Source: a virus (taxonomy: Duplodnaviria; Caudoviricetes). Taken from it: a DNA stretch of 58,099 bases. Location of the stretch: the IMG/VR virus record IMGVR_UViG_3300049043_000087, positions 1-58,099 of that record. One strand, written 5' to 3'. Every line of letters starts with the position of its first letter. Positions within the stretch are counted from its first letter, which is position 1. Shown piece by piece: positions 38,960-54,773 of the stretch. The position numbers and the translations under genes were made by a program. Under the pieces are notes generated by a model. The model searched no databases, was not told the DNA's origin, and was given only the letters and a program-made list of their open reading frames with translations.

Positions 38960-39600
38960 AGAAGATTCGTTTGGTGCGGATGCTGTATTCCTGGTAAGAC
39001 TTTGACTCCATGAGGGAGGCGGCGACCGGCTTTGTACCAGTTGCGGATGGCATCTAAATTCGGAATGATTTCAGTTTTGGTTTTGGGTTCGATCTTCTCT
39101 TCGAGGATCTTTCCACTCAAAGAACGTACCACGGTTTGTTTGGTTGTGGTTACTTCTTGTTCCACGCAGTAGGACTGCCGTTCTTCTTTTGTCCAGTCAT
39201 CCAACTCAGATGAAATTTCAACAGTGAAGTCGCGTTTTTTTATCAACACAAACTGATAGTTGCGCCCTGTTATTTTGTTTTCATCTTTAGGCAGTGCCCG
39301 CCTAAGCCAACTCAACAATCCCTTCAGTCCACGGAGCTGGGATTCGTGGTGACGCTTGGCTTGGGCCAGGAGTTCCGATTCCCTTTTGATGTGCTCAAGA
39401 GCTTGCTCATGAGATTCCATGGCGTAGTGGACACGATCCACTTTCTCAGAGCGTAAGGAAGCGCAATTTTCCAGCTCTGCTCGCGCCAAGTCCTGAGATT
39501 CAGGAGTGAGGAGAGGAAGAGAGCGCTCCAAGGCACCATAGTGTTCGTACAGCTGAATGATGGTGAGTTCGTTCAGCTTAGTTTGCGTGGCTTGAGCCAT
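38956..39600 (-). CDS. Siphovirus Gp157-like coiled-coil protein
   Basis: EKVDRV..AKRHHESQLRGLK..L, PNLDAIR..G..LPHGVK. Confidence 0.6.
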   Translation of the reverse strand: MAQATQTKLNELTIIQLYEHYGALERSLPLLTPESQDLARAELENCASLRSEKVDRVHYAMESHEQALEHIKRESELLAQAKRHHESQLRGLKGLLSWLRRALPKDENKITGRNYQFVLIKKRDFTVEISSELDDWTKEERQSYCVEQEVTTTKQTVVRSLSGKILEEKIEPKTKTEIIPNLDAIRNWYKAGRRLPHGVKVLPGIQHPHQTNLL

Positions 39601-39743
39601 GATCAGATGGTGTTGAAATGGGATTGAAATTTGTTGAGTGTGTAGGCCAGCAGCGCTGCGGCTGCTGTCCAAAGTAAATCTTTCAGTACAGGAAGTACGT
39701 AAGAAAGAAGTGCTTCAAACATGAGTTGAGATGTAGTGGAAAG

Positions 39744-39772
39744 CTGGTCAGTTTAACGTCGTGACCAGGACG
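39744..39772 (-). promoter_or_regulatory. Pseudoknot leader element, copy 1
   Basis: CGTC-CTGGTCAC-GACG-TTAAAC-TGACCAG; 21 nt before ATG at 39722. Confidence 0.8.
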
Positions 39773-40196
39773 GCCCTCGGCTACTGGAGATTGTTTAGTC
39801 TACGGACTCTGTCAAGTCCTCAGGCCAGTCAGGCATGTCATTGCCTAACGCTTCAGCACAGGCAGCATAAAGGGCATCCATCACAAAAGACTTCTGCCCT
39901 CCTCTTCTCCCCAGCTGTTCCAGAGTTCTAGATCAGGATCGGTTTCGTCCCATTCGATGTGAATGGTGCAGCTACCGTCTTCCTCATCAATCACTTCCAG
40001 ATTTAGCTTTTCGATCCAGTTCTTGTTCGACATGGCCAATCAGTACGTTTTGGGCGTAGTCTCATGATGCATCTTAAGGTCTGCAGCTAGCTTGACCAGC
40101 TCCCAGTGGGTGTCTTCTGGGACTTCAAGGTCATAGCGTGTGTGAGTAGTCATGCGTGATTTGAGTGCAAGTTGACGTGCGTAATCAAGAATGTCG

Positions 40197-40556
40197 TCAG
40201 TCATCAGGAAGCTGCTCCAGTGCTCGTCGGATGATTTGTTCATGTGCAGGTTGGTAGCACTGGTTTTCGCCTATGGCGGCAAAGTGCATTTTTAGTGCAT
40301 CCAGTGCCTGCTCCTTCAAGTTCGGTGGTTTTGGACGGCGGATGGCGCGGAGGTTATCGACCTCCCAAGGTGTCAGCCATTTTTTACAAAAGTCGAGAAC
40401 TGCCTCCAGCTCCTGGTCAGCTCCCCATTGGGCGGCGCGTATGGACAAATCCATATCACTTTCACCTAATAATGATGGTTTGCCATCGTTCCAGAATTGA
40501 GAAATCCACTGCTGCACCAGTTCCGGCGGTGGGGTGATGGGATGTTGTTGTGTCAT
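40197..40556 (-). CDS. PPPELV-family small phage protein, copy 3
   Basis: HPITPPPELVQQW..AAQWGADQELEA..LRAIRRPKPPNLKEQAL..IIRRALEQLPD. Confidence 0.8.
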   Translation of the reverse strand: MTQQHPITPPPELVQQWISQFWNDGKPSLLGESDMDLSIRAAQWGADQELEAVLDFCKKWLTPWEVDNLRAIRRPKPPNLKEQALDALKMHFAAIGENQCYQPAHEQIIRRALEQLPDD

Positions 40557-41492
40557 TTCTTGACGGCTGCTTGGAGTTGAGGCAAAGCTGTACCAGGAAA
40601 TGGCACGTAGCCTGCGTCCATCATGTTAAAGAACAAATCCCAGGCGTCATGCTGGGTAAACACCTCCCTTGGTTTGTAAGTACGCCAATGAGTCAGCGGC
40701 GCTTGTGATCCTGACTTGGTATGCAGCAGGACAAAACGTCCATTACTGGTGGCATCAGAAGGGGGTGCGTACCACCAGGCCACACACCTATCAGGCGTAC
40801 CACTGGGGCTGGCATTCCTGGCTTCCGTGCGTTTGCACAGCAGCTCCTGTACTTCTGAATCCAGGTCAGGTGGATGCACCAAGGTCTGAAGCCCTGCGAT
40901 TTCTTGTTGGAACAAAGCCACATTGTTGAGCTGACGCTGAAAGGACCCGCATGAACACCAAGGTTCAGATGCCGGAGCGGTGCTTTCGTTGTCCACCAAC
41001 TCAGCGTCCAGATCAACGGGCCGATTTGGAAGCCGCATCCCGTCCGGCGCAACCAGATGGCCCAGGTCCGTTTGGTCAGATTTGGAGCAAGGCTGTGAGT
41101 TTGTTGATGTCTGATAAGTGTATAAAACGGTCTGCCCAGTGCTTTTGAAGCTGAGCGTTTGGGGTGATGTGTCCGAGGGAGTGTCCATAGGTCCAGCCTT
41201 TGTAAAGGATATACGCGTTGTATCTCCACATCCCCGGACCCCGGTAGTCAGGTCCCAGGTATGCAAAGAAGTTTTTAAGACGCGTGGTGTAATCGTTAAA
41301 CGCGTGTTGGATCAGTGGCCGGTTGTAAGTTTGCTCACTACCATCCAAGCGCACCACAAGGCAAGAATCATCTCGGAGATAAATGCCGGCGACACCAGTG
41401 TCATCAAAGTCCTGGAACGCACGGCGTAGGTTCGACCGCGTGTAGATACAAGTTTGTGCGGCGTTAAGTTCTTGTTGAGTTTGGGTTGACAT
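40553..41492 (-). CDS. SWIM-type Zn-finger protein (frameshifted)
   Basis: WCSCGSF...PWCIHL across ORF pieces. Confidence 0.6.
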
Positions 41493-41757
41493 GGGCTGAG
41501 TTGAGTTGGGATGAGATCAGATGAAGAGGTCCTTGTTTGGATCTTCTTGCGTTTTGGTTTGTTTTGCATTGGAGTAAGCACTCTTTGCAACACGGTAGGT
41601 GGCATAAGCCAAAGCACCCCAGGCAACGGGATTCCCTACAACTGCAAGGATCACCAGCTCCTACCAAACCAAAGGTGCCAGCGGTAGCAATTGCCGCTTT
41701 TTCTTTAGGATTCATTTGTTTGACTAGAATTAAAATAAATTGTTCAGTGGTGTACAA

Positions 41758-42024
41758 ATGGAAATCAAGTACGTTCCACTCAGTAAGTTCCAGATCGAAC
41801 CTTCAATGGAGGATAAGTTCTGGGAAGAGAAAGTCAAAAGGTCAATAGAAGAATGCAATTCAGTCAGTACCTTGAAAGAAATGGCGACCCTGCTTGCGCG
41901 GATCGCCACTCAACGTCAAGGTGTGATTCGTGGGCTAGTGCAGGATATGTTCATCTTCAACAATGTTGCAGTTGAACAAGAAGATCTGACCAACCCAGAG
42001 ATCCCGAACGGGAATAAACTTTAG
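41758..42024 (+). CDS. Small helical protein, possibly a divergent NblA
   Basis: PSMEDKFWEEKVKRSIEECNSVSTLKEMATLLARIATQRQGVIRGLV; lone plus-strand gene with upstream TAGAAT/TAAAAT. Confidence 0.5.
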   Translation: MEIKYVPLSKFQIEPSMEDKFWEEKVKRSIEECNSVSTLKEMATLLARIATQRQGVIRGLVQDMFIFNNVAVEQEDLTNPEIPNGNKL

Positions 42025-43121
42025 AGGGAGTCGTCCTCACCAGTCATTTCATCCCGAGCGGGAAGAGCTTTGACATCTACAGGATCCGTGGTGCGGGACA
42101 CAGGAAGAATCTCAACACCCGGCTTGATACCGTAGGCACCACCCAGCTTGTCAGCATCTTGCTTGGCATGGATGTTGATGTAATCATTGAACAGTTCCTG
42201 GAACTTCCAGGTGGACTCACGATCCTCATCGGGAATCGAAAGCTTGTTCAGTGATTCGATTGCGTCTTCCTGAGTGCTGTAATCAGGGATGTCAAAAGAT
42301 TCAATTGCGCAGATCTCAACGTTGTTGGCGCCGCGCATCTCATTGGCAAGTATTGGAGCAAATACGGTAGTGGCGTAGAACTTTTCATTAAAGCTCAGAG
42401 GGACTTCAGCATCCAATGCTTTGCTTAGGCACTTGGACATTTCCTTTTCATACAGGCGCACCTTCTCAGATACGTCAGTGCCATTAAGACCTTTGAGGGT
42501 CAGCACCATCGGAATCTTGTGGGCACGCTTATTATCCTGGGTCAGGATGTATACCAGGTATTTGGTACGCACGCTGTAGCGGCGCTTGTACATTTCACCT
42601 TTGCTGTTAGCCAGATCAGCAGCCACCTTGTCGTCATCGAACAAGGCCTTGACTTCTGGATTCTCAAAGGTGCCAATGGTCTGACGCATGCCGCTGGTTT
42701 CTTCCACCATCAGGGGAGAACGCAGCAGGATCTGGAGGCGAGGCTCAGTAAAGTTCAGACCTTCTTCAATGGAAGTGTTGGGTGCCATGCCAAAGGTCTG
42801 CTTGTAGTTCCAGATGACAGAACCTTTAGCAAAGTCAGATTCCTCTGCAGTCCAACCGCAGGTATCCAGATCGGACTTACGTACAAACCAACCACGGGTT
42901 TTGGACTTGTTAAGCGGTTGGATGGTCACCAGGTTCTGGTAACCCGATACAAATTCTTTGGACTGGAACATCTTGAAAGATTCCAGGCCACGGGTAGCAA
43001 GTGCCGAAGTTTTCTTCACAGTCATTTTGTTGGTGGTTTTCAGAGAGGGTGCAGAAGTGGTTTCAGATTCGAGTTCTTCCATCCAGGATTCACTCATCAT
43101 GTCAGTCGGAGCCGTAGTCAT
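42021..43121 (-). CDS. DUF5895-like protein (possible ssDNA-annealing or recombination role)
   Basis: Intact 366 aa ORF with GWFV..CGW, PRLQILLRSPL and an acidic tail; downstream of SSB. Confidence 0.55.
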   Translation of the reverse strand: MTTAPTDMMSESWMEELESETTSAPSLKTTNKMTVKKTSALATRGLESFKMFQSKEFVSGYQNLVTIQPLNKSKTRGWFVRKSDLDTCGWTAEESDFAKGSVIWNYKQTFGMAPNTSIEEGLNFTEPRLQILLRSPLMVEETSGMRQTIGTFENPEVKALFDDDKVAADLANSKGEMYKRRYSVRTKYLVYILTQDNKRAHKIPMVLTLKGLNGTDVSEKVRLYEKEMSKCLSKALDAEVPLSFNEKFYATTVFAPILANEMRGANNVEICAIESFDIPDYSTQEDAIESLNKLSIPDEDRESTWKFQELFNDYINIHAKQDADKLGGAYGIKPGVEILPVSRTTDPVDVKALPARDEMTGEDDSL

Positions 43122-43143
43122 GGTTGGTTCTGAGTTGGAACAC

Positions 43144-43170
43144 GGATGCTTTTAACGTCATCCCAGGACG
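43144..43170 (-). promoter_or_regulatory. Pseudoknot leader element, copy 2
   Basis: CGTC-CTGGGAT-GACG-TTAAAAGC-ATCC; 22 nt before ATG at 43121. Confidence 0.7.
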
Positions 43171-43175
43171 GGTGC

Positions 43176-43460
43176 TTACTCTAATTCGTCTTGTTGCAAT
43201 GGCAAAGACGTTTGTTTCTTTTCTTGACATTGGAAGTGTTCTTCCGCAATGTCACGCATGCAGCCATAGATTACATCATCGTAATGACCACATCCCCGCA
43301 GAAAATCTACAATGTGTCGAATGATGTTATCTGTAAACACCTCCTGGAATGTTGTTAGGTTTTGGCTATTGCCATCCTGGTGCAACAAATAGAAAGTGTC
43401 ATGAGGAAGTTCTTTATCCAGAGGAAGAACAAACTCAAACTCAGGTTTTTGATTTTCCAT
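43176..43460 (-). CDS. Hypothetical protein
   Basis: 94 aa ORF with VDFLRGCG. Confidence 0.65.
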   Translation of the reverse strand: MENQKPEFEFVLPLDKELPHDTFYLLHQDGNSQNLTTFQEVFTDNIIRHIVDFLRGCGHYDDVIYGCMRDIAEEHFQCQEKKQTSLPLQQDELE

Positions 43461-44266
43461 TAGAAAGGTGCCTCCTCTAGTTCAGGTGCAGCGCCGTATC
43501 GACCAGGCAACTCGGGCAGGCCCGAATTAACAGACCAAGGATCCCCCTCCTCTTCCGAGCCACGCCCGCCCCACAGGGGAGCTGCTGTATCCGACGACAA
43601 GGTAGTCGACGGTTTGATCTCCTGCGTGTTCGGTGTTTGATTCCCCTTGGGAGCCAAGGTCATAGAGATTAGCTGGATCTTGGTCTGGCTTTTCTTTTCA
43701 CCACTGGTATTATCCTTCCAGGAATCAGTGACCAGCCTGCCCTGGATTGTAAGACCAGTTCCCTTGCGTGTGAAATTAACCAGGAGTTCTGCGTTGTTTA
43801 ACTTATCCTCTGCCGTATTAATGGCATAGAAGTTAAACAGATCAGCTTGGTTACGCCCAGTGTTTACAGACAGTGTTTGATTACAGATCATCAACCCACT
43901 TTCCGTAGTTTTAAACACCCTGGCATCGTCCGTAGCAATGTCTTTAACGCAACGGCCGCTGAGGATGACGGTGTTAAGCATCGGGAACTGATCGTTGACC
44001 TGTACAGCAGTGCCGCCATGGAGCGAGTGTGTTCTGCTGTCGACATCAAAGCGTAGCTTGGCGCCGTGAATGTAGATGTAGTTTCCTTTACGGAGCCTAG
44101 AGAAACGCTCGGCGTTCTTTCCATAGATGTTGAGATCAAGTTGAGTTTGAGCTTTGTTACCCACGGGCGGCAGGATGACCGTGCAGCGCATGGCAGTTGA
44201 TGAAGCTGAGGTAAAAACCTCGCGCGGATCTTCGGACAGATACGCGTATATAGAAGCAAAGTTCAT
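43460..44266 (-). CDS. ssb: Single-stranded DNA-binding protein with two OB folds
   Basis: NTVILSGR..D, RKGTGLTIQGRL..DSWKD..GEKKS, acidic EEAPF C-terminus. Confidence 0.85.
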   Translation of the reverse strand: MNFASIYAYLSEDPREVFTSASSTAMRCTVILPPVGNKAQTQLDLNIYGKNAERFSRLRKGNYIYIHGAKLRFDVDSRTHSLHGGTAVQVNDQFPMLNTVILSGRCVKDIATDDARVFKTTESGLMICNQTLSVNTGRNQADLFNFYAINTAEDKLNNAELLVNFTRKGTGLTIQGRLVTDSWKDNTSGEKKSQTKIQLISMTLAPKGNQTPNTQEIKPSTTLSSDTAAPLWGGRGSEEEGDPWSVNSGLPELPGRYGAAPELEEAPF

Positions 44267-44286
44267 GTGTTCGGAAGTTAGGTAAA

Positions 44287-44313
44287 AGGCAGTTTAACGT
44301 CGTACCTGGGACG
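44287..44313 (-). promoter_or_regulatory. Pseudoknot leader element, copy 3
   Basis: CGTC-CCAGGTAC-GACG-TTAAAC-TGCCT; 20 nt before the ssb ATG. Confidence 0.8.
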
Positions 44314-44318
44314 TGGCA

Positions 44319-46176
44319 TCAGTGCGTGTTAGCCCAGCTACACCGACCCTTGAGTCGCCGTCAATCTTACAGCGAAATCCAAAAAATTCCTGTGCTTGCG
44401 GAAACGCACGCAAAGCTTGCTCTTGAATCACGGGCGTTAGATCCTTAGGACAGGACAGTTGGATCTCATCGTGAATCATGGCGTGTTGAATCCAATCATG
44501 CTCATGTCTTAATCCCAGTTCCATTAAGTTGTTATGTAAGTTAATGACAACTTGTTTCATGATGAGTGCGCCTGCAGCTTGCAGTAGAAGATTTAATCCT
44601 TTGAATTCAGACCTACAGAACAATGCACGCTATCCAAACCCCGTAGAAATCCACGGGATTGGATTGTTAATGCAATGTTTTCCTTCAAAGATTTAAGAGC
44701 TGGTACACCCTTCATGAATGAATTGATTGCAGCACTTCCTTTCTGACGTAATGTATCTGCATCTTTTTCATTCGGATCAATGATGGTTCCTGCTTTCATA
44801 GCGCCACATCCATAGAGCATTCCATACAGCAAACGCTTGCTTACGTCTCTGTTATCCACACCAAACTGCTGCTGGTTGTAAGTATGAATGTCAATAGATT
44901 CATCTGTTACCAGACGAGCGTATTCACCGTCATCCCAGATGGCTAGGTATCCGGCCAAGCAACGTAACTCAAGAGCCTTAGCATCGACCCCAATAAGGTC
45001 CCAATTATGAGGAGCGTGGAAAAGGTTTCGACATTCTTTTCCATATGGGGAGTAAGATGCTGGGACCTGACCCATATTTGGATTGCGGTGTGCGCAGCGC
45101 CCGCTAATGCAACCGTTAGTAACCAGATCGCCGTGCATACATAGGTCATTGTTGTTGACAAGCTTGAGCCAGGCATTGTTTCCATCAGCAATTTGACCAA
45201 GGCGTTTCTTGACCAGCATGTATTCAGCTAAGGGTCCAGCTTCGGGGTAGGGCAAAGCCGCGAGTATATCGTCATCAAGTATTGGATTTCCTTTTTCCGT
45301 TGTTTTGTCCGGCGTCCATCCGTACTTTTGTTTAAGTCGGTCAGCAATCTAGTACGAGATCCCGGATTGAATTCCTCAAAGCGAACCTTCGTGAAGGGCT
45401 GACCTTTAACATAGCCTCGTGTTTTGTTATTGACCTTAGGGATAAAGGTATCTTCATGCCGTATTGGCGGAAACAGTTCCTTTAGGCGGCTCTCAAGTTC
45501 CGCTTGCTTTGTTCTAAGGTCATCCACAAGATCAAGGCATGCATCAACATCAAAAGGAAAACCTGCTCGCACTTGTCGGTTAATTGCCAAGGCAAAGTCA
45601 TGCTCCAGTTTGAGCGCGGGTTCCGGATAGTTTTGGTTAACAATGAACTGCCAAAGCTTGCGAGTAACTGCAACGTCCTGGACGCAGTAGTCCAACATCT
45701 CTTGAGAATATGAGGAGAAGTCCTTGAACTCGATCTTATGATCGGCCAAGCGCCATCCCCATGCCTCAAGAGATGCGGTACCACGCCGCTTCGCTGGAAC
45801 TTGCGGATATTGTTCACTGTCTAATATCCTCTAAAACTTCTTTTGGCCAGATCAATCTGGTACAAATAAGCGTGTCGATAATGCGGCATTTGACGGAGAA
45901 TGAATGTAGTTTTTGTAGAACAGGGATGTCATAAAAAATTATGTTGTGCCCAATGAGAACATCAGCGGTTGCCAGATGAGCAAGAGCAGCATCAATGCTG
46001 TCAGGCCCATAAGTAAAAGTTTTTGCTCGTGTAATGTCATGGAGGACAATGCAAAAAACTTCTGTAGCTTGGTCATAAAGCCCATTGGTTTCGATGTCAA
46101 AAATCAACCAGGTTTCATTTTCTGAACCGGGCTTCATCTTGAATTGAGAGTTCTTCACCGGCAAGAGTTTTGTCAT
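44319..46176 (-). CDS. polA: Family A (T7-like) DNA polymerase with 3'-5' exonuclease (several read frameshifts)
   Basis: FDIETNGL, GHNIIFYD, YCVQDV, GVDAKALELR, KRLLYGMLYG, LLQAAGA, IHDEIQ. Confidence 0.93.
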
Positions 46177-46348
46177 TGTTGTTAATCCACGCCAAGATCG
46201 ACTGAGCCCCTGCCCTGTAGGGATGGGAGAAAATCCTGTTCAGAGCTACTTCTGAATCTAACGGAATTAACAGAAATTGTTTGTCAGAAGGACAGGCAGT
46301 AATGGCGTACGGCCTGCCCTCTTTCCACGTAGCAATAACGTAAGACAT
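46115..46348 (-). CDS. Hypothetical protein
   Basis: 77 aa ORF. Confidence 0.55.
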   Translation of the reverse strand: MSYVIATWKEGRPYAITACPSDKQFLLIPLDSEVALNRIFSHPYRAGAQSILAWINNNDKTLAGEELSIQDEARFRK

Positions 46349-46404
46349 ACAAAAGATGAAAGACGGACAGATAATATCTAATCCATCAAGACATGCAAGG
46401 TGTT

Positions 46405-47172
46405 TTACGTTATCTCCTGATTTGATTTGCCGTATCCCACAAATCCACCTTCTTTCTTGCGTTGAGAGATAGCTTTGCTTGCGTCAGAGCCAGCACGCTG
46501 GGAGCCATGAACCAGCAATGCAAACGGTTTGTCACCTAAGCAATGACTGTCATCATGGTCAATTTCTAAACCACGTTTAACAGCTTCTGCTTCTGTGTAA
46601 ACAACGTAAGCAATACGTTGAAATACCTTTGGATGTTTAGGAATTAAGTAGTCAAGCGTACCACCACAAGATGCAGTGAAATAAAAGTTAGCTGGAATCT
46701 GATCAACTAGGTTTAACCACATGCCAAGGGATTTGGTGTAAGCATAAAACTTTTGTTGAGGCCTTGTTTGTGCAGCCATAAGCCAAGCCTTCATGTAGTT
46801 CTCAGTCCAGAAATCGCCAGCTTCATGGACCCGCACCAAATCTTTGGGTGGCATCATGGTCAACGACACATCAATAAGTTTGCAAAGCAAAGCAGCCTGG
46901 TCTTCACCGGAATACATGACTTCTCGCAACAAATCCCAGTTGTGCCAACGAGCATCACGTACGTTAGGCCTAACTTCTGCCATAGCAGAAAAACAACGGA
47001 ACTCATCTGCAATAGTGCCAGTGAGCTGCGGTAAATCTGTAATAGCACCTGTGGTTCTATCTGCAAATGTTTTGCAAACGCCAGCGTTTGGGCATGAGTA
47101 ACCAGATGGCAAGCTAAAGATCAAACGATTCTTGAGCTTACCGTTACCGGTAGAAAACTTAAGGAGTTTCAT
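46405..47172 (-). CDS. Gp88-like protein (radical-SAM-like Cys pattern)
   Basis: GNGKL..FSLPSGYSCP.AG.C..CF, VRVHEAGDF, FYAYTKS. Confidence 0.75.
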   Translation of the reverse strand: MKLLKFSTGNGKLKNRLIFSLPSGYSCPNAGVCKTFADRTTGAITDLPQLTGTIADEFRCFSAMAEVRPNVRDARWHNWDLLREVMYSGEDQAALLCKLIDVSLTMMPPKDLVRVHEAGDFWTENYMKAWLMAAQTRPQQKFYAYTKSLGMWLNLVDQIPANFYFTASCGGTLDYLIPKHPKVFQRIAYVVYTEAEAVKRGLEIDHDDSHCLGDKPFALLVHGSQRAGSDASKAISQRKKEGGFVGYGKSNQEIT

Positions 47173-47193
47173 GAGTTGAATTGAATTGAATGA

Positions 47194-47220
47194 AAGCAGT
47201 TTAACGTCATACTCAGGACG
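47194..47220 (-). promoter_or_regulatory. Pseudoknot leader element, copy 4
   Basis: CGTC-CTGAGTAT-GACG-TTAAAC-TGCTT; 21 nt before ATG at 47172. Confidence 0.8.
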
Positions 47221-47483
47221 ATAAACATGTGATTGTATGGGGTGCAGAAGAGCAGCGTTAACCCCAAAGGAATCAGGGTTTCTGGAGGCTGCACCTTCTT
47301 GTGGTTATGTTACCGCATGAACAACATCATTTACAGATGTTGACATATAGTTTTGGTATCAATAAATACCAAAATGAAACAAGCATTGATTGTTTATTTA
47401 ATAGATAAAAAGAAAAAAATAACACGCAAAGAAACTGAATCTAAACGCGCCATCAAAGAACTAGAAAAACATAAAGCTGCAAT

Positions 47484-48125
47484 TTACTGATTCATTGAAC
47501 ACACAGTTTCTCCAATGATTGGGAACTGTTCACAGAAAATAGTTCTAATTTGTTCTGCAATTTGTCGGTGTTCGAGTTGGGTTCCTGGGTCACAGCGTAG
47601 TTGGATGTAATGAATCCATGAGCGGAGTGTACCGTTCATGTAGAGTTTAGTTTGAGTGCCTAGCGGAAGAATGTTCCTAGCGCACTCTTTGGCAATGCCA
47701 GTGCTGATCATCTCCTTGTAGAGGTGCTCAGCATCTTCAAACAACTGGCTGATACGCCGGTAATAACCAGCGATCTCTTCGGGGGACAGATCATCAATAC
47801 TGTTCTGTCTGTTCTTGTGGTCTTGCCTACGCAGATGCGGGATTTCAGCAGAGCCAAGCTCCCTGGTATCTGCATAACGTTGACTGAATTCCTGGAAACT
47901 AAATGAACGATGTCTCAGGATTTGCGCCGAGATTGAACGAGTTGTTTCAATTTCAACACACATGTTTGCCATTTCAAATGGCGACCAATGTTTATGGTTG
48001 ATCAGGTATTGCAACAGCTTGGGTGCTGTGTCCATGTTGTCCTGATTTCTTGGAGCACTGACGCGTGCCATGTAAACAATCAGTTCTTCTGCATTGGGCG
48101 TAGCAGAGATGAGTTCAACCTTCAT
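47484..48125 (-). CDS. thyX: Flavin-dependent thymidylate synthase
   Basis: HWSPFE, QILRHRSFSFQEFSQRY, KECARNILP, TQLEHR. Confidence 0.96.
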   Translation of the reverse strand: MKVELISATPNAEELIVYMARVSAPRNQDNMDTAPKLLQYLINHKHWSPFEMANMCVEIETTRSISAQILRHRSFSFQEFSQRYADTRELGSAEIPHLRRQDHKNRQNSIDDLSPEEIAGYYRRISQLFEDAEHLYKEMISTGIAKECARNILPLGTQTKLYMNGTLRSWIHYIQLRCDPGTQLEHRQIAEQIRTIFCEQFPIIGETVCSMNQ

Positions 48126-48325
48126 AGTGAATTGCAATGTAGGAAGTAATGATACTTGGCACCCCAAGGATCTGTGTACTGAACCACGTCACAGTTGTTG
48201 TATTTATCTACAACCTTGAACTTAGGTTCAGCTTCAATTGTTTTACCAAACATTGCATAAAACAAAAGAAGAAAAACTAATGAAGCAATTACTGCAACAA
48301 CAACCATTTGAGTACGGTCGTCCAT
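48122..48325 (-). CDS. Small membrane-anchored protein
   Basis: N-terminal hydrophobic helix. Confidence 0.6.
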   Translation of the reverse strand: MDDRTQMVVVAVIASLVFLLLFYAMFGKTIEAEPKFKVVDKYNNCDVVQYTDPWGAKYHYFLHCNSL

Positions 48326-48621
48326 TATTCTCCTGGCACCGATACATTTTTCATCATGCTCTCAAGATCACGTTCGTGACAGATACGAAATGATGCGTGT
48401 TCTCTTGGTGACTTGAGATGATCCCATTGAATTACCAACATGTTTTGCTTGGCCTTGCGTGTAGTAAGTTTGGTTTTAAATCCAACGACCACACCATACC
48501 GTTGTGTACGGTATTGAGCAGTACGCTCTTTGCTTTCTTTTCGGGTAGCAATAATCCCATGGGTCTTGGGGCGTTCCGCAACGCGATCACCAACCCGAAA
48601 GACAACAGGTTTTCGTTTCAT
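48325..48621 (-). CDS. Hypothetical protein
   Basis: 98 aa ORF in a coupled operon. Confidence 0.6.
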   Translation of the reverse strand: MKRKPVVFRVGDRVAERPKTHGIIATRKESKERTAQYRTQRYGVVVGFKTKLTTRKAKQNMLVIQWDHLKSPREHASFRICHERDLESMMKNVSVPGE

Positions 48622-48968
48622 GATTCGTACCAGGTGCAGTCAGAGGATTCAGAAGTGTCGTATTCAGGGAAATCATATGCACACTGTTCGCCATTGTTGT
48701 GTTTGCAATCAGTACACATATATGGTTCCTGTTGTGTTTGAGCTGGCGTAGTGTTAAGCAGTTTATAAAACTGACTAACCAAAAACAAATTCCGCTTTGC
48801 TTCCTCAAAGAAGTCAGATGTAACTTCATGGGTAGTAAAGCGTTCCTTGCAATAATCACATTGTTTACGCCGACGCGTAGAAAAATGTGTTTGCCTGCTT
48901 TCGATAACACGCAAACCAGGTTGTTTGCAGTGTGGACATTCAGGAAGAAGAGTCTTCTGAAACGCCAT
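48618..48968 (-). CDS. NrdR-like Zn-ribbon protein
   Basis: CPHC..RVIESR..TRRRKQCDYCKERFTTHE. Confidence 0.7.
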   Translation of the reverse strand: MAFQKTLLPECPHCKQPGLRVIESRQTHFSTRRRKQCDYCKERFTTHEVTSDFFEEAKRNLFLVSQFYKLLNTTPAQTQQEPYMCTDCKHNNGEQCAYDFPEYDTSESSDCTWYES

Positions 48969-49384
48969 TAGTTTGGATCAATAGAACAAGGTGTGTTATC
49001 AGTAGCTTCCTGTTCTTCTGCTTCTCGTTTCTCTTTAGGAACAGGAATCTTATCCAGTTGCAGTGAATCCAAGATATACAAAGTGGATTCTTCTCCTTTA
49101 ATGCGGAACATATCTGGAATAATCTCCATTGGATTTTGGAGATAGTAATCAATTAGATACAGTTCACACATTTTGAACATAGTTTCCATTGGCAACTCAT
49201 CAACGATGTTTGCCACGGAAGCTTCAAGGACGGCAGGCCATGTATGCCTGGGAATCATGTCGCATACTTTAAGGACAAGATCCATGTCCACCTCAGCAGG
49301 CTGAGGGATTTCTTCCTGTTGTGTTAATACATCTTTATAAGCTTGAGGCAGTTGACTTTCCATTGTTTCTGGGTTGAGTTTCAT
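48968..49384 (-). CDS. Hypothetical protein
   Basis: 138 aa ORF. Confidence 0.6.
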   Translation of the reverse strand: MKLNPETMESQLPQAYKDVLTQQEEIPQPAEVDMDLVLKVCDMIPRHTWPAVLEASVANIVDELPMETMFKMCELYLIDYYLQNPMEIIPDMFRIKGEESTLYILDSLQLDKIPVPKEKREAEEQEATDNTPCSIDPN

Positions 49385-49415
49385 AAGAAAGAGCCCCCGC
49401 TTATAGCAGGGGCTT
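49385..49415 (-). terminator. Probable intrinsic terminator
   Basis: Minus strand AGCCCCTGC-TATAA-GCGGGGGCT followed by CTTTCTT. Confidence 0.7.
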
Positions 49416-49433
49416 GAACATTCCGGCTTGATA

Positions 49434-49796
49434 TTAGGCGGGTTGAGCGGATGTGTCCACTACCTGCTCCATCAAGCCAGCTTCTTTAAGGCGATCGAGC
49501 ATGCCGCACATAATGTTGGCATGGGTATGGGTTTGTTCCATGAACATGCGTGCTCGGTCTGCTGACATAGTGTGGACCCTACCGTCGGGTTCCACATACT
49601 TCCAGCTGCCATCAGGCTGGGGATCACCCTGGAGGGCAAGACGTTCTGAGTTTCGAACGTACCGTAGCTCGAGGTTGTGATAGTCCTTAAGACCGTCAGC
49701 CGCTGTCCAGGTTGCGCCAATGTTGTAGCGTTGCTCATCATCAGAATACGCGTGGAACTCTGGAATGAGATGACGAAAAGCAGAAAGGAATTCCAT
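49434..49796 (-). CDS. Hypothetical protein
   Basis: 120 aa ORF. Confidence 0.65.
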   Translation of the reverse strand: MEFLSAFRHLIPEFHAYSDDEQRYNIGATWTAADGLKDYHNLELRYVRNSERLALQGDPQPDGSWKYVEPDGRVHTMSADRARMFMEQTHTHANIMCGMLDRLKEAGLMEQVVDTSAQPA

Positions 49797-49815
49797 CGTC
49801 GTAATAAGTTGTAGT

Positions 49816-49891
49816 TGGTACCCGAGGTGAGATTCGAACTCACGCTAGAGCGATTTTAAGTCGCTTGCCTCTTCCGCTTGGGCTACTGGGC
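49816..49891 (-). tRNA. trnL: tRNA-Leu (anticodon TAA) with encoded CCA
   Basis: D arm TAGCCCAAGCGGAAGAGGC, anticodon arm AGCGA-CTTAAAA-TCGCT, T arm GTGAG-TTCGAAT-CTCAC, 3' ACCA; one acceptor-stem base apparently missing in the read. Confidence 0.9.
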
Positions 49892-50104
49892 GTACCTGGA
49901 CTTACCTCTACATCAATGGATGTTGAGTGCCAGGTATGGTCATGGGGTAACGGCTCAGTGCCATAATCCCATGTGTACGTGAGTCTTCCTCATCTGCGAG
50001 GATCTTCTTCAATCAGATATGTGCTGGTGGTGAATTGTCATGGATAAATTCACCAATGTTTGCCATGGCCATAGCCGAAGAGCTGGCTTATCGGTGTAGC
50101 TCGG

Positions 50105-51916
50105 TCATATTAAAAGGGGATCCTGTAGCGAGGATAGGATCCCCCAATGCTGTATGGTCAGCCCACAGAGCTTAGCGCCTTGTCTCGGGTTTTGCAACGC
50201 TACCCGGAAGGCTTCTGTGTACTGCTGCTTGAGATGATCAGAGAGAACAGAGTTGGACAAGCCACGGATCTGTTCTACTGACATGAAGCCATTGTTGACC
50301 TTGAGCTGGATGGTAAACTGAGGTTTGCCATCAATCATGCAGAGCACAATAAAGTGCTGTTTTCTGCGGACGCCCTCAGCATATCCAGAGGCAGAGCCCG
50401 ACGCAGTTGCGTCACGGCCTGACCCCAAAGGGCAAGCTGATGGGTGTCATGGGGCTGGAAGAATGTCCAGATCTCCTGGCCCTGCTCAACCTTGATAGGT
50501 TCTGGAAACAGATCTTGAGGCAAGCCCTCGTTGGGATTACTGATCTTCCAGGATTCTGCTTGAACATAATCATGGAACTCAGCAATACGCCAACGTTTGG
50601 GAGGCTCAGAGTGTTTCCTTGTTATGAGAGGATGCGAGCAAGCATGGATACAGTGTCATTCCAATCACTGAAGTGATGAACATGACAGTTGAGGTCTTGA
50701 CTCCAGTTGTATCTGTCTCTGTTTGATTCCTGTTGTTTCTCATGGAACTTGGCAAGCATGCCAAAGAATGAACCAACAGGACATATGCTGACGCAGCCAT
50801 TCTGCCGCCTTGTCAGAACTATAGTTCCTGAACCTGGCACGCAGGCCCAGGTCATACATCTGTTTCTGATAGCAAATCGACAGGGCAGTCCAGGCCAGAT
50901 GCGTCTGAACATGTAGGACGTCCCCAGCGAGTCGCACCTGACCGGCGTCCGACACCGCACATCGATCTCCCGTCTGATAACCGACAGGCAGGCTATTGCT
51001 GATGCAGCAATGGATAGCTGAAGTTCTTCCTGCATCCATTTACGGAAGTATGGAGTATTAAAGATATGGCTGTCTTGCACTTTATCGATGTATCGCAGTT
51101 CATGAGTCCAGTTGACATAACTGGCATAGTGAGTTGCTGCTTTAGCAACAGACAAACAAGTTGTCAACTGGTCTAATTGCCAGCCAACTCTGCTTATCTT
51201 CTGGGATGTGCTTGTTAGAAGTTTCAACAGCTTTCCAGATCTCGTTGGCATTGCATGCGTGCAAATGTCTCACGCGAATCTTTCCCAAGTAGGGATACTT
51301 TCTTCTAATGCTTTACGGAATTCGTCTACCGCTTGGTGAGACTTCACGGCTCTTCTCAGTAGTAAGAAGCAAGGTGATCAGCACGCACCTTGGCCCTGGT
51401 GTAACCATTAAAAATATCTGGTTCGGTTAACTGTAGTTCTGGTGTACACATAAAATGTGGCTACGGCCTACCTGTACCGGCGTGCATTCATCAATCTTGT
51501 CCGGCGTCGAGCGACTAAGAACCTTACGTGCAGAAGCCGTATCTTTAAAACGCAGGTAGCGAAACCATAAACATAATCTTCGCCCTGCGGCGGTAGCCAC
51601 ACGCAGCGTACCAACACTGTTCGGTAGTGGTAGAGGATTGCTTTTGTAAGTAAGCGAGCACGGAGTTGCAACATCCACAGGCGTAGTAAATTTCTGAAAT
51701 CGATAACGTGCCTCATTGCCATTGATGTTATCGATTGCGTCTTGTCTGTAATGATTCTCTTATAACTGAATGTGGAATGAGATGAGGAATGTTTCCTGAA
51801 CTGGATACTTAGATTTCTTGGCAGGATTCTGTTTGCGTTGTTGACGAGCCAGTGCTTTGAGCTGGGTCATACGCCAACAGTTCAGTTTGTAGGTTGGAAG
51901 GTAGTTGGAATTGCAT
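50105..51916 (-). CDS. PcfJ-like protein (heavily frameshifted)
   Basis: C-terminal QPHDTHQLALWGQAV..C..GYA..V..FTIQL..VEQIRGLSN. Confidence 0.6.
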
Positions 51917-51947
51917 GGTAAGTTTGGAGTTGAGTTCGGAGTTCGGC

Positions 51948-51975
51948 GAGCAGTTTAATGCTCATGCTCAGGACA
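51948..51975 (-). promoter_or_regulatory. Pseudoknot leader element, copy 5
   Basis: TGTC-CTGAGCAT-GA(G)CA-TTAAAC-TGCTC; 31 nt before ATG at 51916. Confidence 0.7.
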
Positions 51976-52069
51976 GCTGATCAGTTCATGAACCCAGTGG
52001 CCAGGTAAACTCTGCCCTTAGGTCCACGAACAATGATGTACCAGCGTTTGAATTCGATAGAGAATCCAA

Positions 52070-52330
52070 TCATGGATCTAGATTCCAATCGGATGTGTCG
52101 ACAAGTTGCCAGTTAAGATCGAGTGAATGGAGATAGCTACAGAACCCATCTTCGTCAGTAGGGATCTGTTCGCCATCATCCAATTTGAAAGATGCTGAGC
52201 GAAGAGCTGGAGCCCATTCCTCAGGATCAAAATATGATCCTCGATAAAGGAGGCGCATATCCTCCACAACCGCTGTAACTGTGACATTAGTTCCGTTGAC
52301 TGAAGTGTCTTCAATAGCAAGGACTGACAT
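52070..52330 (-). CDS. Hypothetical acidic protein
   Basis: 86 aa ORF. Confidence 0.6.
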   Translation of the reverse strand: MSVLAIEDTSVNGTNVTVTAVVEDMRLLYRGSYFDPEEWAPALRSASFKLDDGEQIPTDEDGFCSYLHSLDLNWQLVDTSDWNLDP

Positions 52331-52555
52331 AAGTCATACCTCAGTAAGCTGACGTGGTTTCATAAATTCAGAATCAGGTCCAAGTACTTTTCAACAAGAT
52401 CAGGAAATGCATCAAGCAAACGCTGACGATTTACTGGATCTGCAAATTGCAAAGTTTGTGCCGAATGCACTAACGAATGAACCGCCACTAGCCTGCATGA
52501 GACAGAGCATGGCAAAAAACTGTGTTTGATTCATGGATTGAATTGCAATGTGATG

Positions 52556-52583
52556 TGAGCAGTTTAACGTCATACTCAGGACG
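52556..52583 (-). promoter_or_regulatory. Pseudoknot leader element, copy 6
   Basis: CGTC-CTGAGTAT-GACG-TTAAAC-TGCTCA; 21 nt before ATG at 52534. Confidence 0.8.
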
Positions 52584-52588
52584 GATCT

Positions 52589-52813
52589 TCAGAATAATTT
52601 AATATTCCGTTTACTCAATCCTGTGCCAGGCAATGACACAGAGCCAAGCAGGCCGCTAGGGCGAGCGTTGACTGTGAATTGAAATGGTCCAAGTTTGAAT
52701 GACTTGGTATAACTTTTGATGCCACGCTCGGGGGTGATGTTGACACCAGCAATGGTGCGATCAAAGTTAATGCTGATTTCTTTTGAGTCATTAGTCAAGG
52801 AGTTTGATTGCAA
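52589..52813 (-). CDS. DUF4236-like small protein
   Basis: KSFKLGPFQFTVN..SVSLPGTGLS. Confidence 0.55.
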   Translation of the reverse strand: MQSNSLTNDSKEISINFDRTIAGVNITPERGIKSYTKSFKLGPFQFTVNARPSGLLGSVSLPGTGLSKRNIKLF

Positions 52814-54268
52814 TGATTGTGAAACAGATCAGTGCTGTTACTAGGACTAAAGCTTCTGCCATGCTCATCGAAGTTCGTCAGGCAGGAGCATGTTGGTGTC
52901 TTTCTCGTTCATGTTGGACATGACGAATGTTTCAGCCGTCAGGTGAAATAAATCCACCAACAAATCCCATACCGTATTTATCTGCAGACTCACGCATCTT
53001 GGCAGTGAGTTGCATGAAGGCAAGCTTCTGTGAATCTAATGAATTAGGAATGGTTGGTTTGTTGGATGACATGAGTTGAGATGGTGATAGGTGAATGGAG
53101 TCTACCAGTAATGTCAAGGACGTACTACTGGTATGTAATAAATCCTTCTTATCGAATAAAGGATTTCTCCCTGGTACTCCCCTTCGGGGGTCTGGGGGCT
53201 GCTCACATCGGATACGCTCCTCCTGCAGGGACTCACTGGGCCAATGATTGTTTAGGGGATTCCGCTTGGTTCAGGCCCAACCGGAAACACCGACCATTTT
53301 GTTGAAGCAAACAAAATGGTTAGCAACGATGAAGCAAGGGGCGCCTGGCCGCACCAGGCTTAGGTTCTAATGCGAACCAGCCCTTTGCTTTACCAACAAT
53401 CACTTGTGTGCTTCCTGGTGTTCTTTCCATGCAGCAGTGTGCATTTCATCCATAGTTATGGGTGGTTCACCAGTCAGATCATCATCTGATGGTTCGTCCC
53501 ACCTCAGTTGCTCTTTCGAGCAGACCAATAGCTTCCAAGATCAGCTCTGGAGCTTCATAAGGAAGTGTTTTGTCTGGCCAATCGCGTTTGTCTTCGCGTT
53601 GGTAGATAGCACTGAGTTCTTTAAGGATGAGATAAATGCGACGTTCTTCACGCATGGCAAAAGGTTATCTGTGTACCGTCTGAGCGTTGGTACACAGTTG
53701 TTATTCAAAGTGCAGTTCAGTTTGTGACATGAGTTGAATTGCAGTGGGGTTAAAGCAAAGCCTGGTATTCATCCACGAAGTTTGCTACGATACATAAGTA
53801 AAACTTATATGCTGATTGGTGCTTTAATCATTAGATTAAGCCAAGGATTGAAAGCCACGAGTCAGGGTGGTCCGGTTCGACCTTCTTCGTCGTCTGGCGT
53901 GAAGCAGACGCTGTCGAACGACCACTCCTCGATGTCTTCGTTGGTTGGGACATCGTACCAACCTTCGAGTTTCTCTTCGGTGTGGACTGGTTTCCAGTAG
54001 CAGCGCAGGGTTCCTCGCTTGTTTCTGTAGACACAACCAGTGGTTGGTGCTCCAGGTTTGTCTGGATCCCAGTTGATGTCAGCTTGAAATTGTTCTTGGG
54101 CTTCCTCTTCGGAGAAGGGGACGTAGCCAAAGCTTTCTGCAATGGCTTGGAGCTTGTTGGATGAAGCATGAGATGAACTCCGTGATAATAATTAGAGATG
54201 ATTGTGATAATGATAATGATGATGTCTGGTTCTTGATTAGCTTTCGTCATCGTATTCCTCAGCATTAA

Positions 54269-54409
54269 TTACGTTGAATCCAATGAACTGTACCATTGTC
54301 GTTCGACGAGGGTCCATTCGGATTGATCTGATTCACGCATAGCCTGCTCTTGTTCATATGCCATGTCAGCCATGGCATCTAGCAAGTCAGCGTTGTAGTT
54401 GTTGTCCAT
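54269..54409 (-). CDS. Small hypothetical protein
   Basis: MDNNYNADLLDAMADMAYEQE; preceded by pseudoknot copy 7. Confidence 0.55.
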   Translation of the reverse strand: MDNNYNADLLDAMADMAYEQEQAMRESDQSEWTLVERQWYSSLDST

Positions 54410-54436
54410 GGGTTGAATTGAATTGATAAAAGGAAC

Positions 54437-54463
54437 GAGCAGTTTAACGTCATACTCAGGACG
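54437..54463 (-). promoter_or_regulatory. Pseudoknot leader element, copy 7
   Basis: CGTC-CTGAGTAT-GACG-TTAAAC-TGCTC; 27 nt before ATG at 54409. Confidence 0.8.
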
Positions 54464-54500
54464 GGGTGATACCACCCCAGATTTGAGTGAATTCAATAAA

Positions 54501-54773
54501 TTAATTCACATCTCTCCATGCAATGCCACGGGCAATGTTGGAGATACTGCAACCAGTAACACCAAACTTCTTACCGATAACGTTATAGAAGTTAGTAACT
54601 GTGCCGCAGGAACGCCTGAGGTTCTCATCCTTCAAGATCATCTTGATTTCCTTGACGGATTGAGGGTTGAGTTTAGAGGGTCCATCCCAATTACGAAAGC
54701 TACGCTTGGGATAACGCTTGATTGCTTCCTGTCCACTCCCCCGATCATCCCTGGCACCTATAACAGCCTTCAT
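54501..54773 (-). CDS. HTH-containing protein (C-terminal part; start probably upstream)
   Basis: SKLNPQSVKEIK..IGKKFGVTGCSISNIARGIAW. Confidence 0.55.
   Translation of the reverse strand: MKAVIGARDDRGSGQEAIKRYPKRSFRNWDGPSKLNPQSVKEIKMILKDENLRRSCGTVTNFYNVIGKKFGVTGCSISNIARGIAWRDVN

Follow-up and report, generated by a model that had tools for sequence, protein, structure and literature searches.

Seven copies of a short element between minus-strand genes

The window analysed here is the whole of an IMG/VR virus record (IMGVR_UViG_3300049043_000087; 58,099 bp, estimated completeness 73%) that is distantly related to the Synechococcus phage S-EIVl, to which one 1-kb stretch is 77% identical. Seven copies of a 27-nucleotide (nt) element, hereafter the knot, are dispersed along it, each on the minus strand between minus-strand open reading frames (ORFs) and each with an ATG 20–31 nt 3' of its core. 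The consensus of the window copies is CGUC-CU-GAGUA-U-GACG-UUAAAC-UGCUC, in which a first stem (S1, CGUC/GACG, 4 bp) and a second stem (S2, 5 bp, GAGUA with the final UGCUC) are joined by three loops: L1 (C followed by a pyrimidine, 2 nt), L2 (1 nt) and L3 (UUAAAC, 6 nt).

Two copies have the consensus sequence itself, CGUC-CU-GAGUA-U-GACG-UUAAAC-UGCUC: copy 6 (52557–52583; 50 bits with the covariance model described below), whose 22-nt leader ends at the ATG (52534) of a 40-residue ORF, and copy 7 (54437–54463; 49.2 bits), which precedes a 46-residue ORF by a 27-nt leader (ATG 54409). Copy 4 (47194–47220; CGUC-CU-GAGUA-U-GACG-UUAAAC-UGCUU; 45.8 bits) has a 21-nt leader before a GP88-family gene (ATG 47172), copy 3 (44287–44313; CGUC-CC-AGGUA-C-GACG-UUAAAC-UGCCU; 43.1 bits) a 20-nt leader before the SSB gene (ATG 44266), and copy 1 (39746–39772; CGUC-CU-GGUCA-C-GACG-UUAAAC-UGACC; 42.7 bits) a 23-nt leader before a 39-residue ORF (ATG 39722) that is itself followed by a weak Sipho_Gp157 match. 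Copy 5 (51948–51975, 28 nt; UGUC-CU-GAGCA-U-GA(G)CA-UUAAAC-UGCUC; 34.9 bits) has U-A as its outer S1 pair and one bulged G in S1, and is followed by a 31-nt leader and a 35-residue ORF (ATG 51916); its homologues in related contigs (L045:2223 and L039:12895) are free of the bulge. Copy 2 (43144–43170; CGUC-CUG-GGAU-GACG-UUAAAAGC-AUCC; 26.3 bits) is a variant with a 4-bp S2, no L2 and an L3 of 8 nt, 22 nt before the gene of a DUF5895 protein (ATG 43121), and the same variant form stands ahead of the homologous gene in a related contig (L054:4791). Exactly 5 nt separate the stop codon of the upstream ORF from S1 at copies 2, 5 and 6. The N-termini encoded by the small ORFs behind the window copies (MFE..., MQF...) recur behind copies in related contigs.

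Several searches delimit this set. With at most one mismatch, the 10-mer core GTTTAACGTC has 10 matches in the window, six of the seven copies among them, against 2.31 expected, and none of 100 shuffles reaches 10. Written in IUPAC code, the core has five matches, all of them on the reverse strand, whereas the reversed pattern, used as a control, matches neither strand. Six copies fit a mechanical pseudoknot descriptor, from which copy 5 departs by the bulged G in S1, and a covariance model (R1) run with filters off returns exactly the seven copies at E <= 1.3e-5, the next best hit scoring 14.3 bits (E 0.05). The preliminary description of this DNA had reported seven dispersed, intergenic minus-strand copies, all of which are present when the minus strand is read; the S2 pairings that it listed are correct, including G-U pairs possible on this strand only, as are the downstream genes that it named and that lie behind copies 1 to 4 (the 39-residue ORF ahead of the weak Sipho_Gp157 match, DUF5895, SSB and GP88, respectively). 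Its seven places stand, but the 3' ends that it gave for copies 1 and 6 run 2 and 1 nt past the core, and spacers to the ATG put at 21, 22, 20, 21, 31, 21 and 27 nt from those ends become 23, 22, 20, 21, 31, 22 and 27 nt from the 27-nt core.

Two further features lie in the same part of the window. A transfer RNA (tRNA) gene for leucine (anticodon TAA; 49816–49891, minus strand) sits within the minus-strand gene block with no knot adjoining it, and a terminator-like hairpin is found at 49414–49392 (minus strand).

An H-type pseudoknot with covariation in both stems

Scanning IMG/VR with a pattern in which S1, L1, L2 and L3 were fixed, the five S2 bases of the loop were left as N and the 3' strand of S2 was left out gave at least 113 loci. 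Among the matches listed (n = 139), all five S2 pairs can form in 115, four of five in 19 and three or fewer in five. When the seven window copies are aligned with 115 distinct others, the 121 distinct rows are 95% paired in S2 and all five pairs vary on both sides, values that none of 500 shuffles reaches; controls in which the S2 register was slid show 22–43% pairing. This first alignment holds 49 different S2 combinations. Of the 605 S2 cells, 64 are G-U; since such pairs become C-A mismatches on the complementary strand, it is the sense-strand RNA that forms the structure.

Because the IMG/VR scan had fixed S1, variants of this stem were sought with the covariance model, S1 positions being treated as unpaired, and by BLAST against GenBank phages. 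Within 42 rows chosen to include S1 variants, covariation is seen at three of the four S1 pairs, the exception being the loop-closing C-G, which is constant (42/42). The outer pair is CG in 16 of these rows, UA in 9, AU in 6, UG in 4, GC in 2 and unpaired in 5; the second pair is flipped once, in a Vibrio phage (UCUC/GAGA), and the third twice, in a Staphylococcus and a Lactobacillus phage (CGAC/GUCG). Two helices are present, the loop of the first pairs with bases downstream of it, and both covary, which is what defines an H-type pseudoknot. This fold, with the sense-strand covariation in S2 that the preliminary description had proposed, is strongly supported by the covariation of S2 and S1 alike.

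The single-stranded parts are constrained as well. L1 is C followed by U or C, its first base being C in 122 of 122 rows. L2 is one base in the first alignment (U in 101 rows, C in 21) and is A or absent in other copies. L3 reads N-U-A-A-A-C, with its first base free, its second mostly U, AAAC near-invariant and insertions tolerated on the 5' side, and S2 ranges from 4 to 7 bp across copies. GUCC, GAC and AAAC-U are invariant beyond what pairing needs. A sixth S2 pair, between the second position of L1 and the base after S2, was considered and rejected: the two are U and A in 61 of 122 rows, but there is no compensation where the L1 base is C.

These data bear directly on whether the conserved entity might act at the level of DNA, as a promoter or as a hairpin recognised on single-stranded DNA. 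Promoter-like hexamers do end 7 nt before copy 2 and 11 nt before copy 4 (at the latter, TTAACG-18-TACAAT), but the region has fewer promoter-like sites than its shuffles (13 versus 22.1). The sequences upstream of 118 viral and 44 genome copies show no enrichment of a −10 box; their T-A/G-A signal at −8 to −6 is the stop codon of the upstream gene. S2 varies freely in sequence, its G-U pairs would be mismatched on the other strand, and the S1 swaps remove any fixed hexamer. We regard a DNA-level element as extremely unlikely.

A module common to phages of many phyla

Over the 41 kb of S-EIVl that were analysed, the covariance model finds six copies, all of them placed a few bases past an annotated stop and immediately ahead of an annotated start, that of ssb included; related contigs have up to ten copies in 7 kb. 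A 35-nt copy used as a BLAST query against GenBank phages (E <= 10) matched 139 records, of which 83 are from Staphylococcus phages, 27 from Vibrio phages and 5 from Synechococcus phages; the others include phages of Microcystis, Nostoc, Lactobacillus, Moorella, Mycobacterium, Arthrobacter, Paracoccus and Bacillus, Geobacillus phage D6E and gut phages. In all ten of the records inspected, a knot with both stems can be recognised. When one genome per prokaryote species was scanned with the exact pattern, 84 matches at 80 loci were obtained, with five of five S2 pairs in 43 and four of five in 19. These matches are mostly from Bacillota, but Saccharibacteria, Anaerolineae, Desulfobacterota, Zixibacteria, Spirochaetes and alphaproteobacterial metagenome-assembled genomes (MAGs) are also represented. 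More than 150 natural variants of the knot are now at hand. Rather than the regulon of one phage, as first suggested, or a cyanophage speciality, the knot is a module common to phages of many phyla.

Some of these copies have peculiarities of their own. The Vibrio phage D456 and 26 near-identical records carry UCUC-CC-GAGCA-U-GAGA-UUAAAC-UGCUC (L202:1495–1529) within a stretch annotated with small minus-strand ORFs, and those ORF calls may therefore be wrong. In six alphaproteobacterial MAGs the copies are nearly the same, their flanks are conserved (...CCCUGGCCGGGUGGCUUAUCGGCU on the upstream side) and the outermost bases of S2 form a U-C mismatch. BLAST of the Enterococcus leader against GenBank phages matched two Latilactobacillus phages and nothing else, through the scaffold gene, and the clostridial leader had no match in the same database; in Latilactobacillus phage TMW 1.591 P1 the gap before the scaffold gene is 39 nt, a size that leaves little room for a 27-nt knot and a leader.

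A core shared with the coremin motif

No part of the window matches an Rfam 15 family at gathering score, and at E <= 10 nothing relevant appears on 39600–54600, on the 81 nt of 54400–54480 or on a Staphylococcus phage copy, preQ1, SAM-II, fluoride and small-ribozyme families included. In the literature searched, 10- to 12-mers of the knot core occur in the text of coremin papers and otherwise only in unrelated primers, no paper joins 'coremin motif' and 'phage', and nothing was found on exonuclease-resistant RNAs of phages.

The invariant core of the phage knot is that of the plant-virus coremin motif, GUCCGAAGACGUUAAACUAC, which resists the exoribonuclease Xrn1. Coremin (xrRNA_C) occurs in beny-, cucumo- and other plant, fungal and insect RNA viruses and stalls Xrn1 without proteins or cleavage, blocks scanning ribosomes and promotes −1 frameshifting (Dilweg 2019, PMC6546385; Dilweg 2023, PMC10520033). 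The stem CGUC/GACG of its first hairpin (hp1), the first loop base C and the spacer stretch UUAAACU are identical in the knot, so that in coremin numbering C1-G2-U3-C4, C5, G9-A10-C11-G12 and U13-U14-A15-A16-A17-C18-U19 are all kept. Mutagenesis in those reports found that hp1 of coremin, a hairpin of 3–5 bp, must have a pyrimidine-purine loop-closing pair, that the other hp1 pairs can be swapped and that the outer pair is dispensable; in the knot, the loop-closing C-G is fixed, the other pairs are exchangeable and the outer pair can be missing. Coremin positions U13 and U14 tolerate change and insertion and A16–A20 are essential (PMC6546385, PMC10520033), and the first two spacer positions of the knot are likewise tolerant, of insertions too, with AAAC-U fixed. 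Of the coremin spacer UUAAACUAC the knot keeps UUAAACU, but the equivalents of A20 and C21 lie in the covarying strand of S2. Judged by sequence, natural variation among phages appears to mirror coremin mutagenesis except at the A20 position. Some RNA viruses carry coremin in intergenic positions too.

The differences are equally definite. The loop of the phage knot has 8 nt (C-Y-NNNYA-Y) and U or C as its second base, whereas the hp1 loop of coremin follows YGAD or YGNNAD, with G in second place, and CCGAAA fails (PMC6546385, PMC10520033); among all copies, a CGAAAU loop is found only at L082:1471–1503 and 2539–2571. Coremin also requires a hairpin (hp2) directly after the spacer for Xrn1 resistance (PMC6546385, PMC10520033), whereas no hp2 follows the window knots, whose leaders are G-poor. 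A pseudoknot between loop and spacer has been proposed for coremin and is proven by compensatory mutants for the Watson–Crick-type xrRNA_WCC, in which loop bases 6–8 pair with spacer bases 18–20 and frameshifting is stimulated without hp2 (Dilweg 2023 RNA Biol, PMC10321173). The S2 of the phage knot is explicitly Watson–Crick, 5 bp long (4–7 bp) and begins one base later than in coremin, after C18; relative to xrRNA_WCC, which has an S2 of 3 bp and a single G as L1 and still needs hp2 for Xrn1 resistance, it is longer and shifted in register by one base. Finally, the knot resides in the messenger RNA (mRNA) of double-stranded DNA phages and bacteria and not in RNA virus genomes. Lacking two coremin features, the second-position G and hp2, it is therefore filed as a related variant built on one shared architecture and not as a coremin member. 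Flaviviral and dianthovirus-type resistant RNAs share with the knot the proposed principle of a protein-independent directional block, but their three-way-junction or stem-loop folds are larger and ring-forming, and their sequences do not resemble that of the knot. Among 5'-side structures that prolong message life or control translation are the 5'-terminal mRNA stabilisers of bacteria and phages and the leader pseudoknot of T4 gene 32; those are gene-specific hairpins or protein operators, whereas the knot is a portable 27-nt module present many times per genome and across phyla.

Bases conserved beyond pairing needs might instead be contacts, the knot then serving as an operator bound by a protein or a small ligand, much as a riboswitch or the target of a translational repressor is. 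In addition to GUCC, GAC and AAAC-U, two subfamilies described below would suit this idea, one in Erysipelotrichaceae with a helix that pairs with the Shine–Dalgarno region and another that overlaps a conserved tiny ORF. The same invariant bases are, however, needed for a cofactor-free function in coremin, the junction base varies among U, C and A, and no riboswitch family matches. Up to ten copies per phage contig, and seven in the window, stand before unrelated genes, and the hosts span cyanobacteria, Bacillota, Actinobacteria, Alpha- and Gammaproteobacteria and candidate phyla with no shared partner evident. An operator function seems to us unlikely.

Placement between stop and start codons

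Flanks were analysed for 104 distinct viral copies with long flanking sequence, upstream ORFs being counted from 60 codons. A stop codon never lies 0–4 nt before S1, but lies exactly 5 nt before it in 26 copies, 6 nt in 10 and 7 nt in 6. The first downstream start is 20–23 nt from the knot in 44 copies and 28–29 nt in 12, and the 20 nt 3' of the knot contain 9.5% G versus 22.4% in the same loci as a whole; the 20- to 31-nt window leaders have 0–3 G each. A ribosome with a stop codon in its A site reaches about 5 nt downstream, and at initiation the ribosome occupies about 20 nt on the 5' side of the AUG. We infer that the floors of 5 and 20 nt are ribosome footprints; if so, the knot is placed such that neither a terminating nor an initiating ribosome must melt it. 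The positions of stops and starts fit a structure that needs to stay folded.

The leaders themselves fall into two classes. Distinct from the 20- to 23-nt leaders of CAAUUCAAC type is a class of 28–31 nt with a tandem CUACGAAC/CUCCGAAC-like repeat before the ATG, as in copy 5 (CGAACUCCGAACUCAACUCC; window 51917–51947, minus strand) and at loci in nine further contigs. Knot and leader seem to travel together as a cassette.

Spacing of this kind can also be read as a sign that the knot insulates or enhances translation, either by keeping a G-poor leader without a Shine–Dalgarno sequence single-stranded for the 30S subunit and ribosomal protein S1 or by preventing upstream ribosomes from sliding or re-initiating. 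The 44 of 104 viral copies with starts at 20–23 nt, the absence of stops closer than 5 nt, the G-poor leaders and the ability of coremin to block scanning ribosomes and to stimulate frameshifting all point that way; the contexts described in the next section do not. The knot does not look like a stimulator of −1 frameshifting or read-through, as no upstream base is conserved except the stop codon at −8 to −6, and the next gene starts afresh 20–31 nt downstream.

Scaffolding genes, tRNA clusters and tiny ORFs

In Bacillota, the protein encoded downstream of the knot is the head scaffolding protein in seven of seven copies scanned, from two different Pfam families, and a scaffolding gene is also downstream, by annotation or position, in phages D6E, phiEF-1.1 and StauST398-3. 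Here the knot lies 17–106 nt before the start, the leaders have Shine–Dalgarno-like sequences as judged by eye, and terminator-like sites end just upstream of the knot in two of three loci scanned, none being found in the third (L209). We have noted eleven such (pro)phage knots before scaffolding genes (among them L120:144–201, L210:1154–1230 and L201:2501–2526), often right after a terminator-like hairpin and T run and followed by a U-rich stretch of type UUUUAUUAU.

A transcriptional role, as a pause site, terminator or antiterminator in nascent RNA, could be read into the U-rich run directly after S2 in Bacillota phages and into the terminator-like sites adjoining copies in two of three loci. 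Yet the knot is 3' of those terminators and not 5', cyanophage copies have no U run, and a terminator before SSB or scaffolding genes would make little sense, so that this role appears very unlikely.

Elsewhere the knot precedes RNAs that are not translated. A gap of 3 nt separates its end from the first tRNA of a cluster in Arthrobacter phage Molivia (L208:1201–1230, right after ssb) and in two IMG/VR contigs with Ser-Gly-Lys-Arg clusters (L079:520–546 and L096:8001–8027), and one of 5 nt separates it from an annotated pseudo-tRNA in Nostoc phage NMeng1 (L206:1201–1226). In viral contig L082 (1471–1539), a canonical knot in tandem with a copy that has the CGAAAU loop, which fits YGNNAD, stands immediately 5' of a tRNA-like sequence. 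Translation starts are thus no fixed companion of the knot; what its contexts share is a need for abundant or protected RNA, not translation. Because knots lie before tRNA clusters and 50–100 nt before Bacillota starts whose leaders have Shine–Dalgarno-like sequences, translation enhancement, one of the functions named in the preliminary description, cannot be the general one. The knot also often follows a terminator-like site (L209 excepted), where no upstream ribosome arrives, and translational insulation strikes us as a doubtful explanation of the family.

Intergenic sites adjoining tRNA 5' ends, together with the strongly conserved core, raise the possibility that the knot signals RNA processing or, as a very small element, cleaves itself, with defined ends made between cistrons and ahead of tRNAs. 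Many phage ribozymes occupy similar places. At 27 nt, however, the knot is smaller than any natural ribozyme known to us, the 81-nt query matches no ribozyme family even at E <= 10, and coremin acts without cleavage. A processing function is, in our judgement, quite unlikely.

Two subfamilies in prokaryote genomes have architectures of their own. Nine loci, from MAGs of Desulfobacterota, Anaerolineae, Zixibacteria, Spirochaetes and Bacillota, combine the knot with a conserved tiny ORF that has a Shine–Dalgarno-like sequence (by eye), encodes a peptide of the type MKRF-x-IPR-V/I-AHC-xx-GC and ends either 4 nt before S1 or at a UGA inside the knot (L2 plus the 3' strand of S1), giving ...SRA*. 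Two of these loci (L132 and L175) have a second, degenerate knot in tandem, and the next gene in L132 starts MTQCPVCGM, resembling a metal-binding domain. From its sequence, this subfamily looks like a leader-peptide device. The second subfamily comprises eight loci from Erysipelotrichaceae and other Bacilli, with three more of the same kind; the knot sits inside a helix, uACCU ... AGGUa, with the Shine–Dalgarno region overlapping the 3' strand of that helix, S2 has only 3–4 pairs, and the gene behind encodes a conserved 74-residue protein (MKYYTLTAV...) with no Pfam or PHROG match.

A candidate roadblock to 5'-to-3' decay

We propose, with a probability of roughly 0.45, that the knot acts, without proteins, as a 5'-to-3' roadblock and keeps 5'-end-dependent decay away from the RNA on its 3' side. 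Of the three functions put forward in the preliminary description, it is the exonuclease roadblock that is favoured by the core shared with an Xrn1-resistant RNA. On this proposal, each copy would be transcribed within an mRNA and fold without cofactors into the compact H-type pseudoknot, the 6-nt A-rich L3 probably lying in the minor groove of S1, and would then work as coremin does, as a mechanical block to machines coming from the 5' side. For a cyanobacterial host, RNase J, a 5'-3' exonuclease, is a candidate enzyme, as possibly is 5'-end-dependent RNase E. Decay begun upstream would stop at the knot and leave a stable RNA made up of the knot, a G-poor, unstructured leader of 20–31 nt and the cistron. 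The spacing would keep the knot folded, since the upstream ribosome would finish at its stop codon and the downstream ribosome initiate without either entering the structure. The protected RNAs would be SSB and other early messages in the window, those for scaffold and capsid proteins in phages of Bacillota, and precursors of tRNA in other cases. The proposal thus adds a predicted nuclease resistance, putative enzymes and a presumed effect on expression to a fold, a pattern of conservation, a set of positions and a core that are observed.

A flaviviral Xrn1-resistant RNA also halts bacterial RNase J1 (PMC5760640), which argues for a general mechanical block. RNase J is found above the family cut-off in three of five host MAGs, and a fourth has a sub-threshold match.

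Other observations weigh against a roadblock. One Bacteroidetes MAG with copies of the knot has no RNase J match over the cut-off, and a Vibrio phage family carries a good copy although, to our knowledge, the host class of Vibrio lacks RNase J. The two coremin features that the knot does without are ones that coremin needs: hp2 directly after the spacer for Xrn1 resistance, absent from the window copies, and G as the second loop base, where the phage loop has U or C (CCGAAA fails). Moreover, an A-rich L3 is a common solution among H-type pseudoknots, and part of the coremin likeness may be generic. On a link between knot and RNase J, class-level sampling with R1, too sparse to weigh for or against, found copies in 0 of 151 genomes from the class of a gammaproteobacterial MAG and in 2 of 151, the centre itself being one, from the class of an Enterococcus. 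None of the 43 species-genome matches with five of five S2 pairs is labelled Gammaproteobacteria, in a scan whose exact pattern would miss S1 variants like that of the Vibrio phage.

Implications

Tentatively, and with somewhat less assurance than a coin toss would carry, the knot could be the first natural exoribonuclease-resistant RNA class of bacteria and DNA phages: a portable decay barrier built on the coremin core, carried by phages of at least six phyla and set before abundantly needed messages and tRNA clusters, with a covariation record that might settle the much-debated register of the coremin pseudoknot. The more than 150 natural variants provide covariation data that coremin studies lacked and separate structural bases from freely varying ones. 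Should the knot have another function, it still represents a widespread structured RNA family with strong covariation that is absent from Rfam.

If the roadblock proposal is true, structure-based protection from 5'-3' decay was not an invention of eukaryotic RNA viruses but would be a solution that separate virus realms have in common. The proposal would also account for unequal protein levels from the several genes of one compact phage transcript, and it would offer a 27-nt portable mRNA-stabilising part for bacteria with RNase J.

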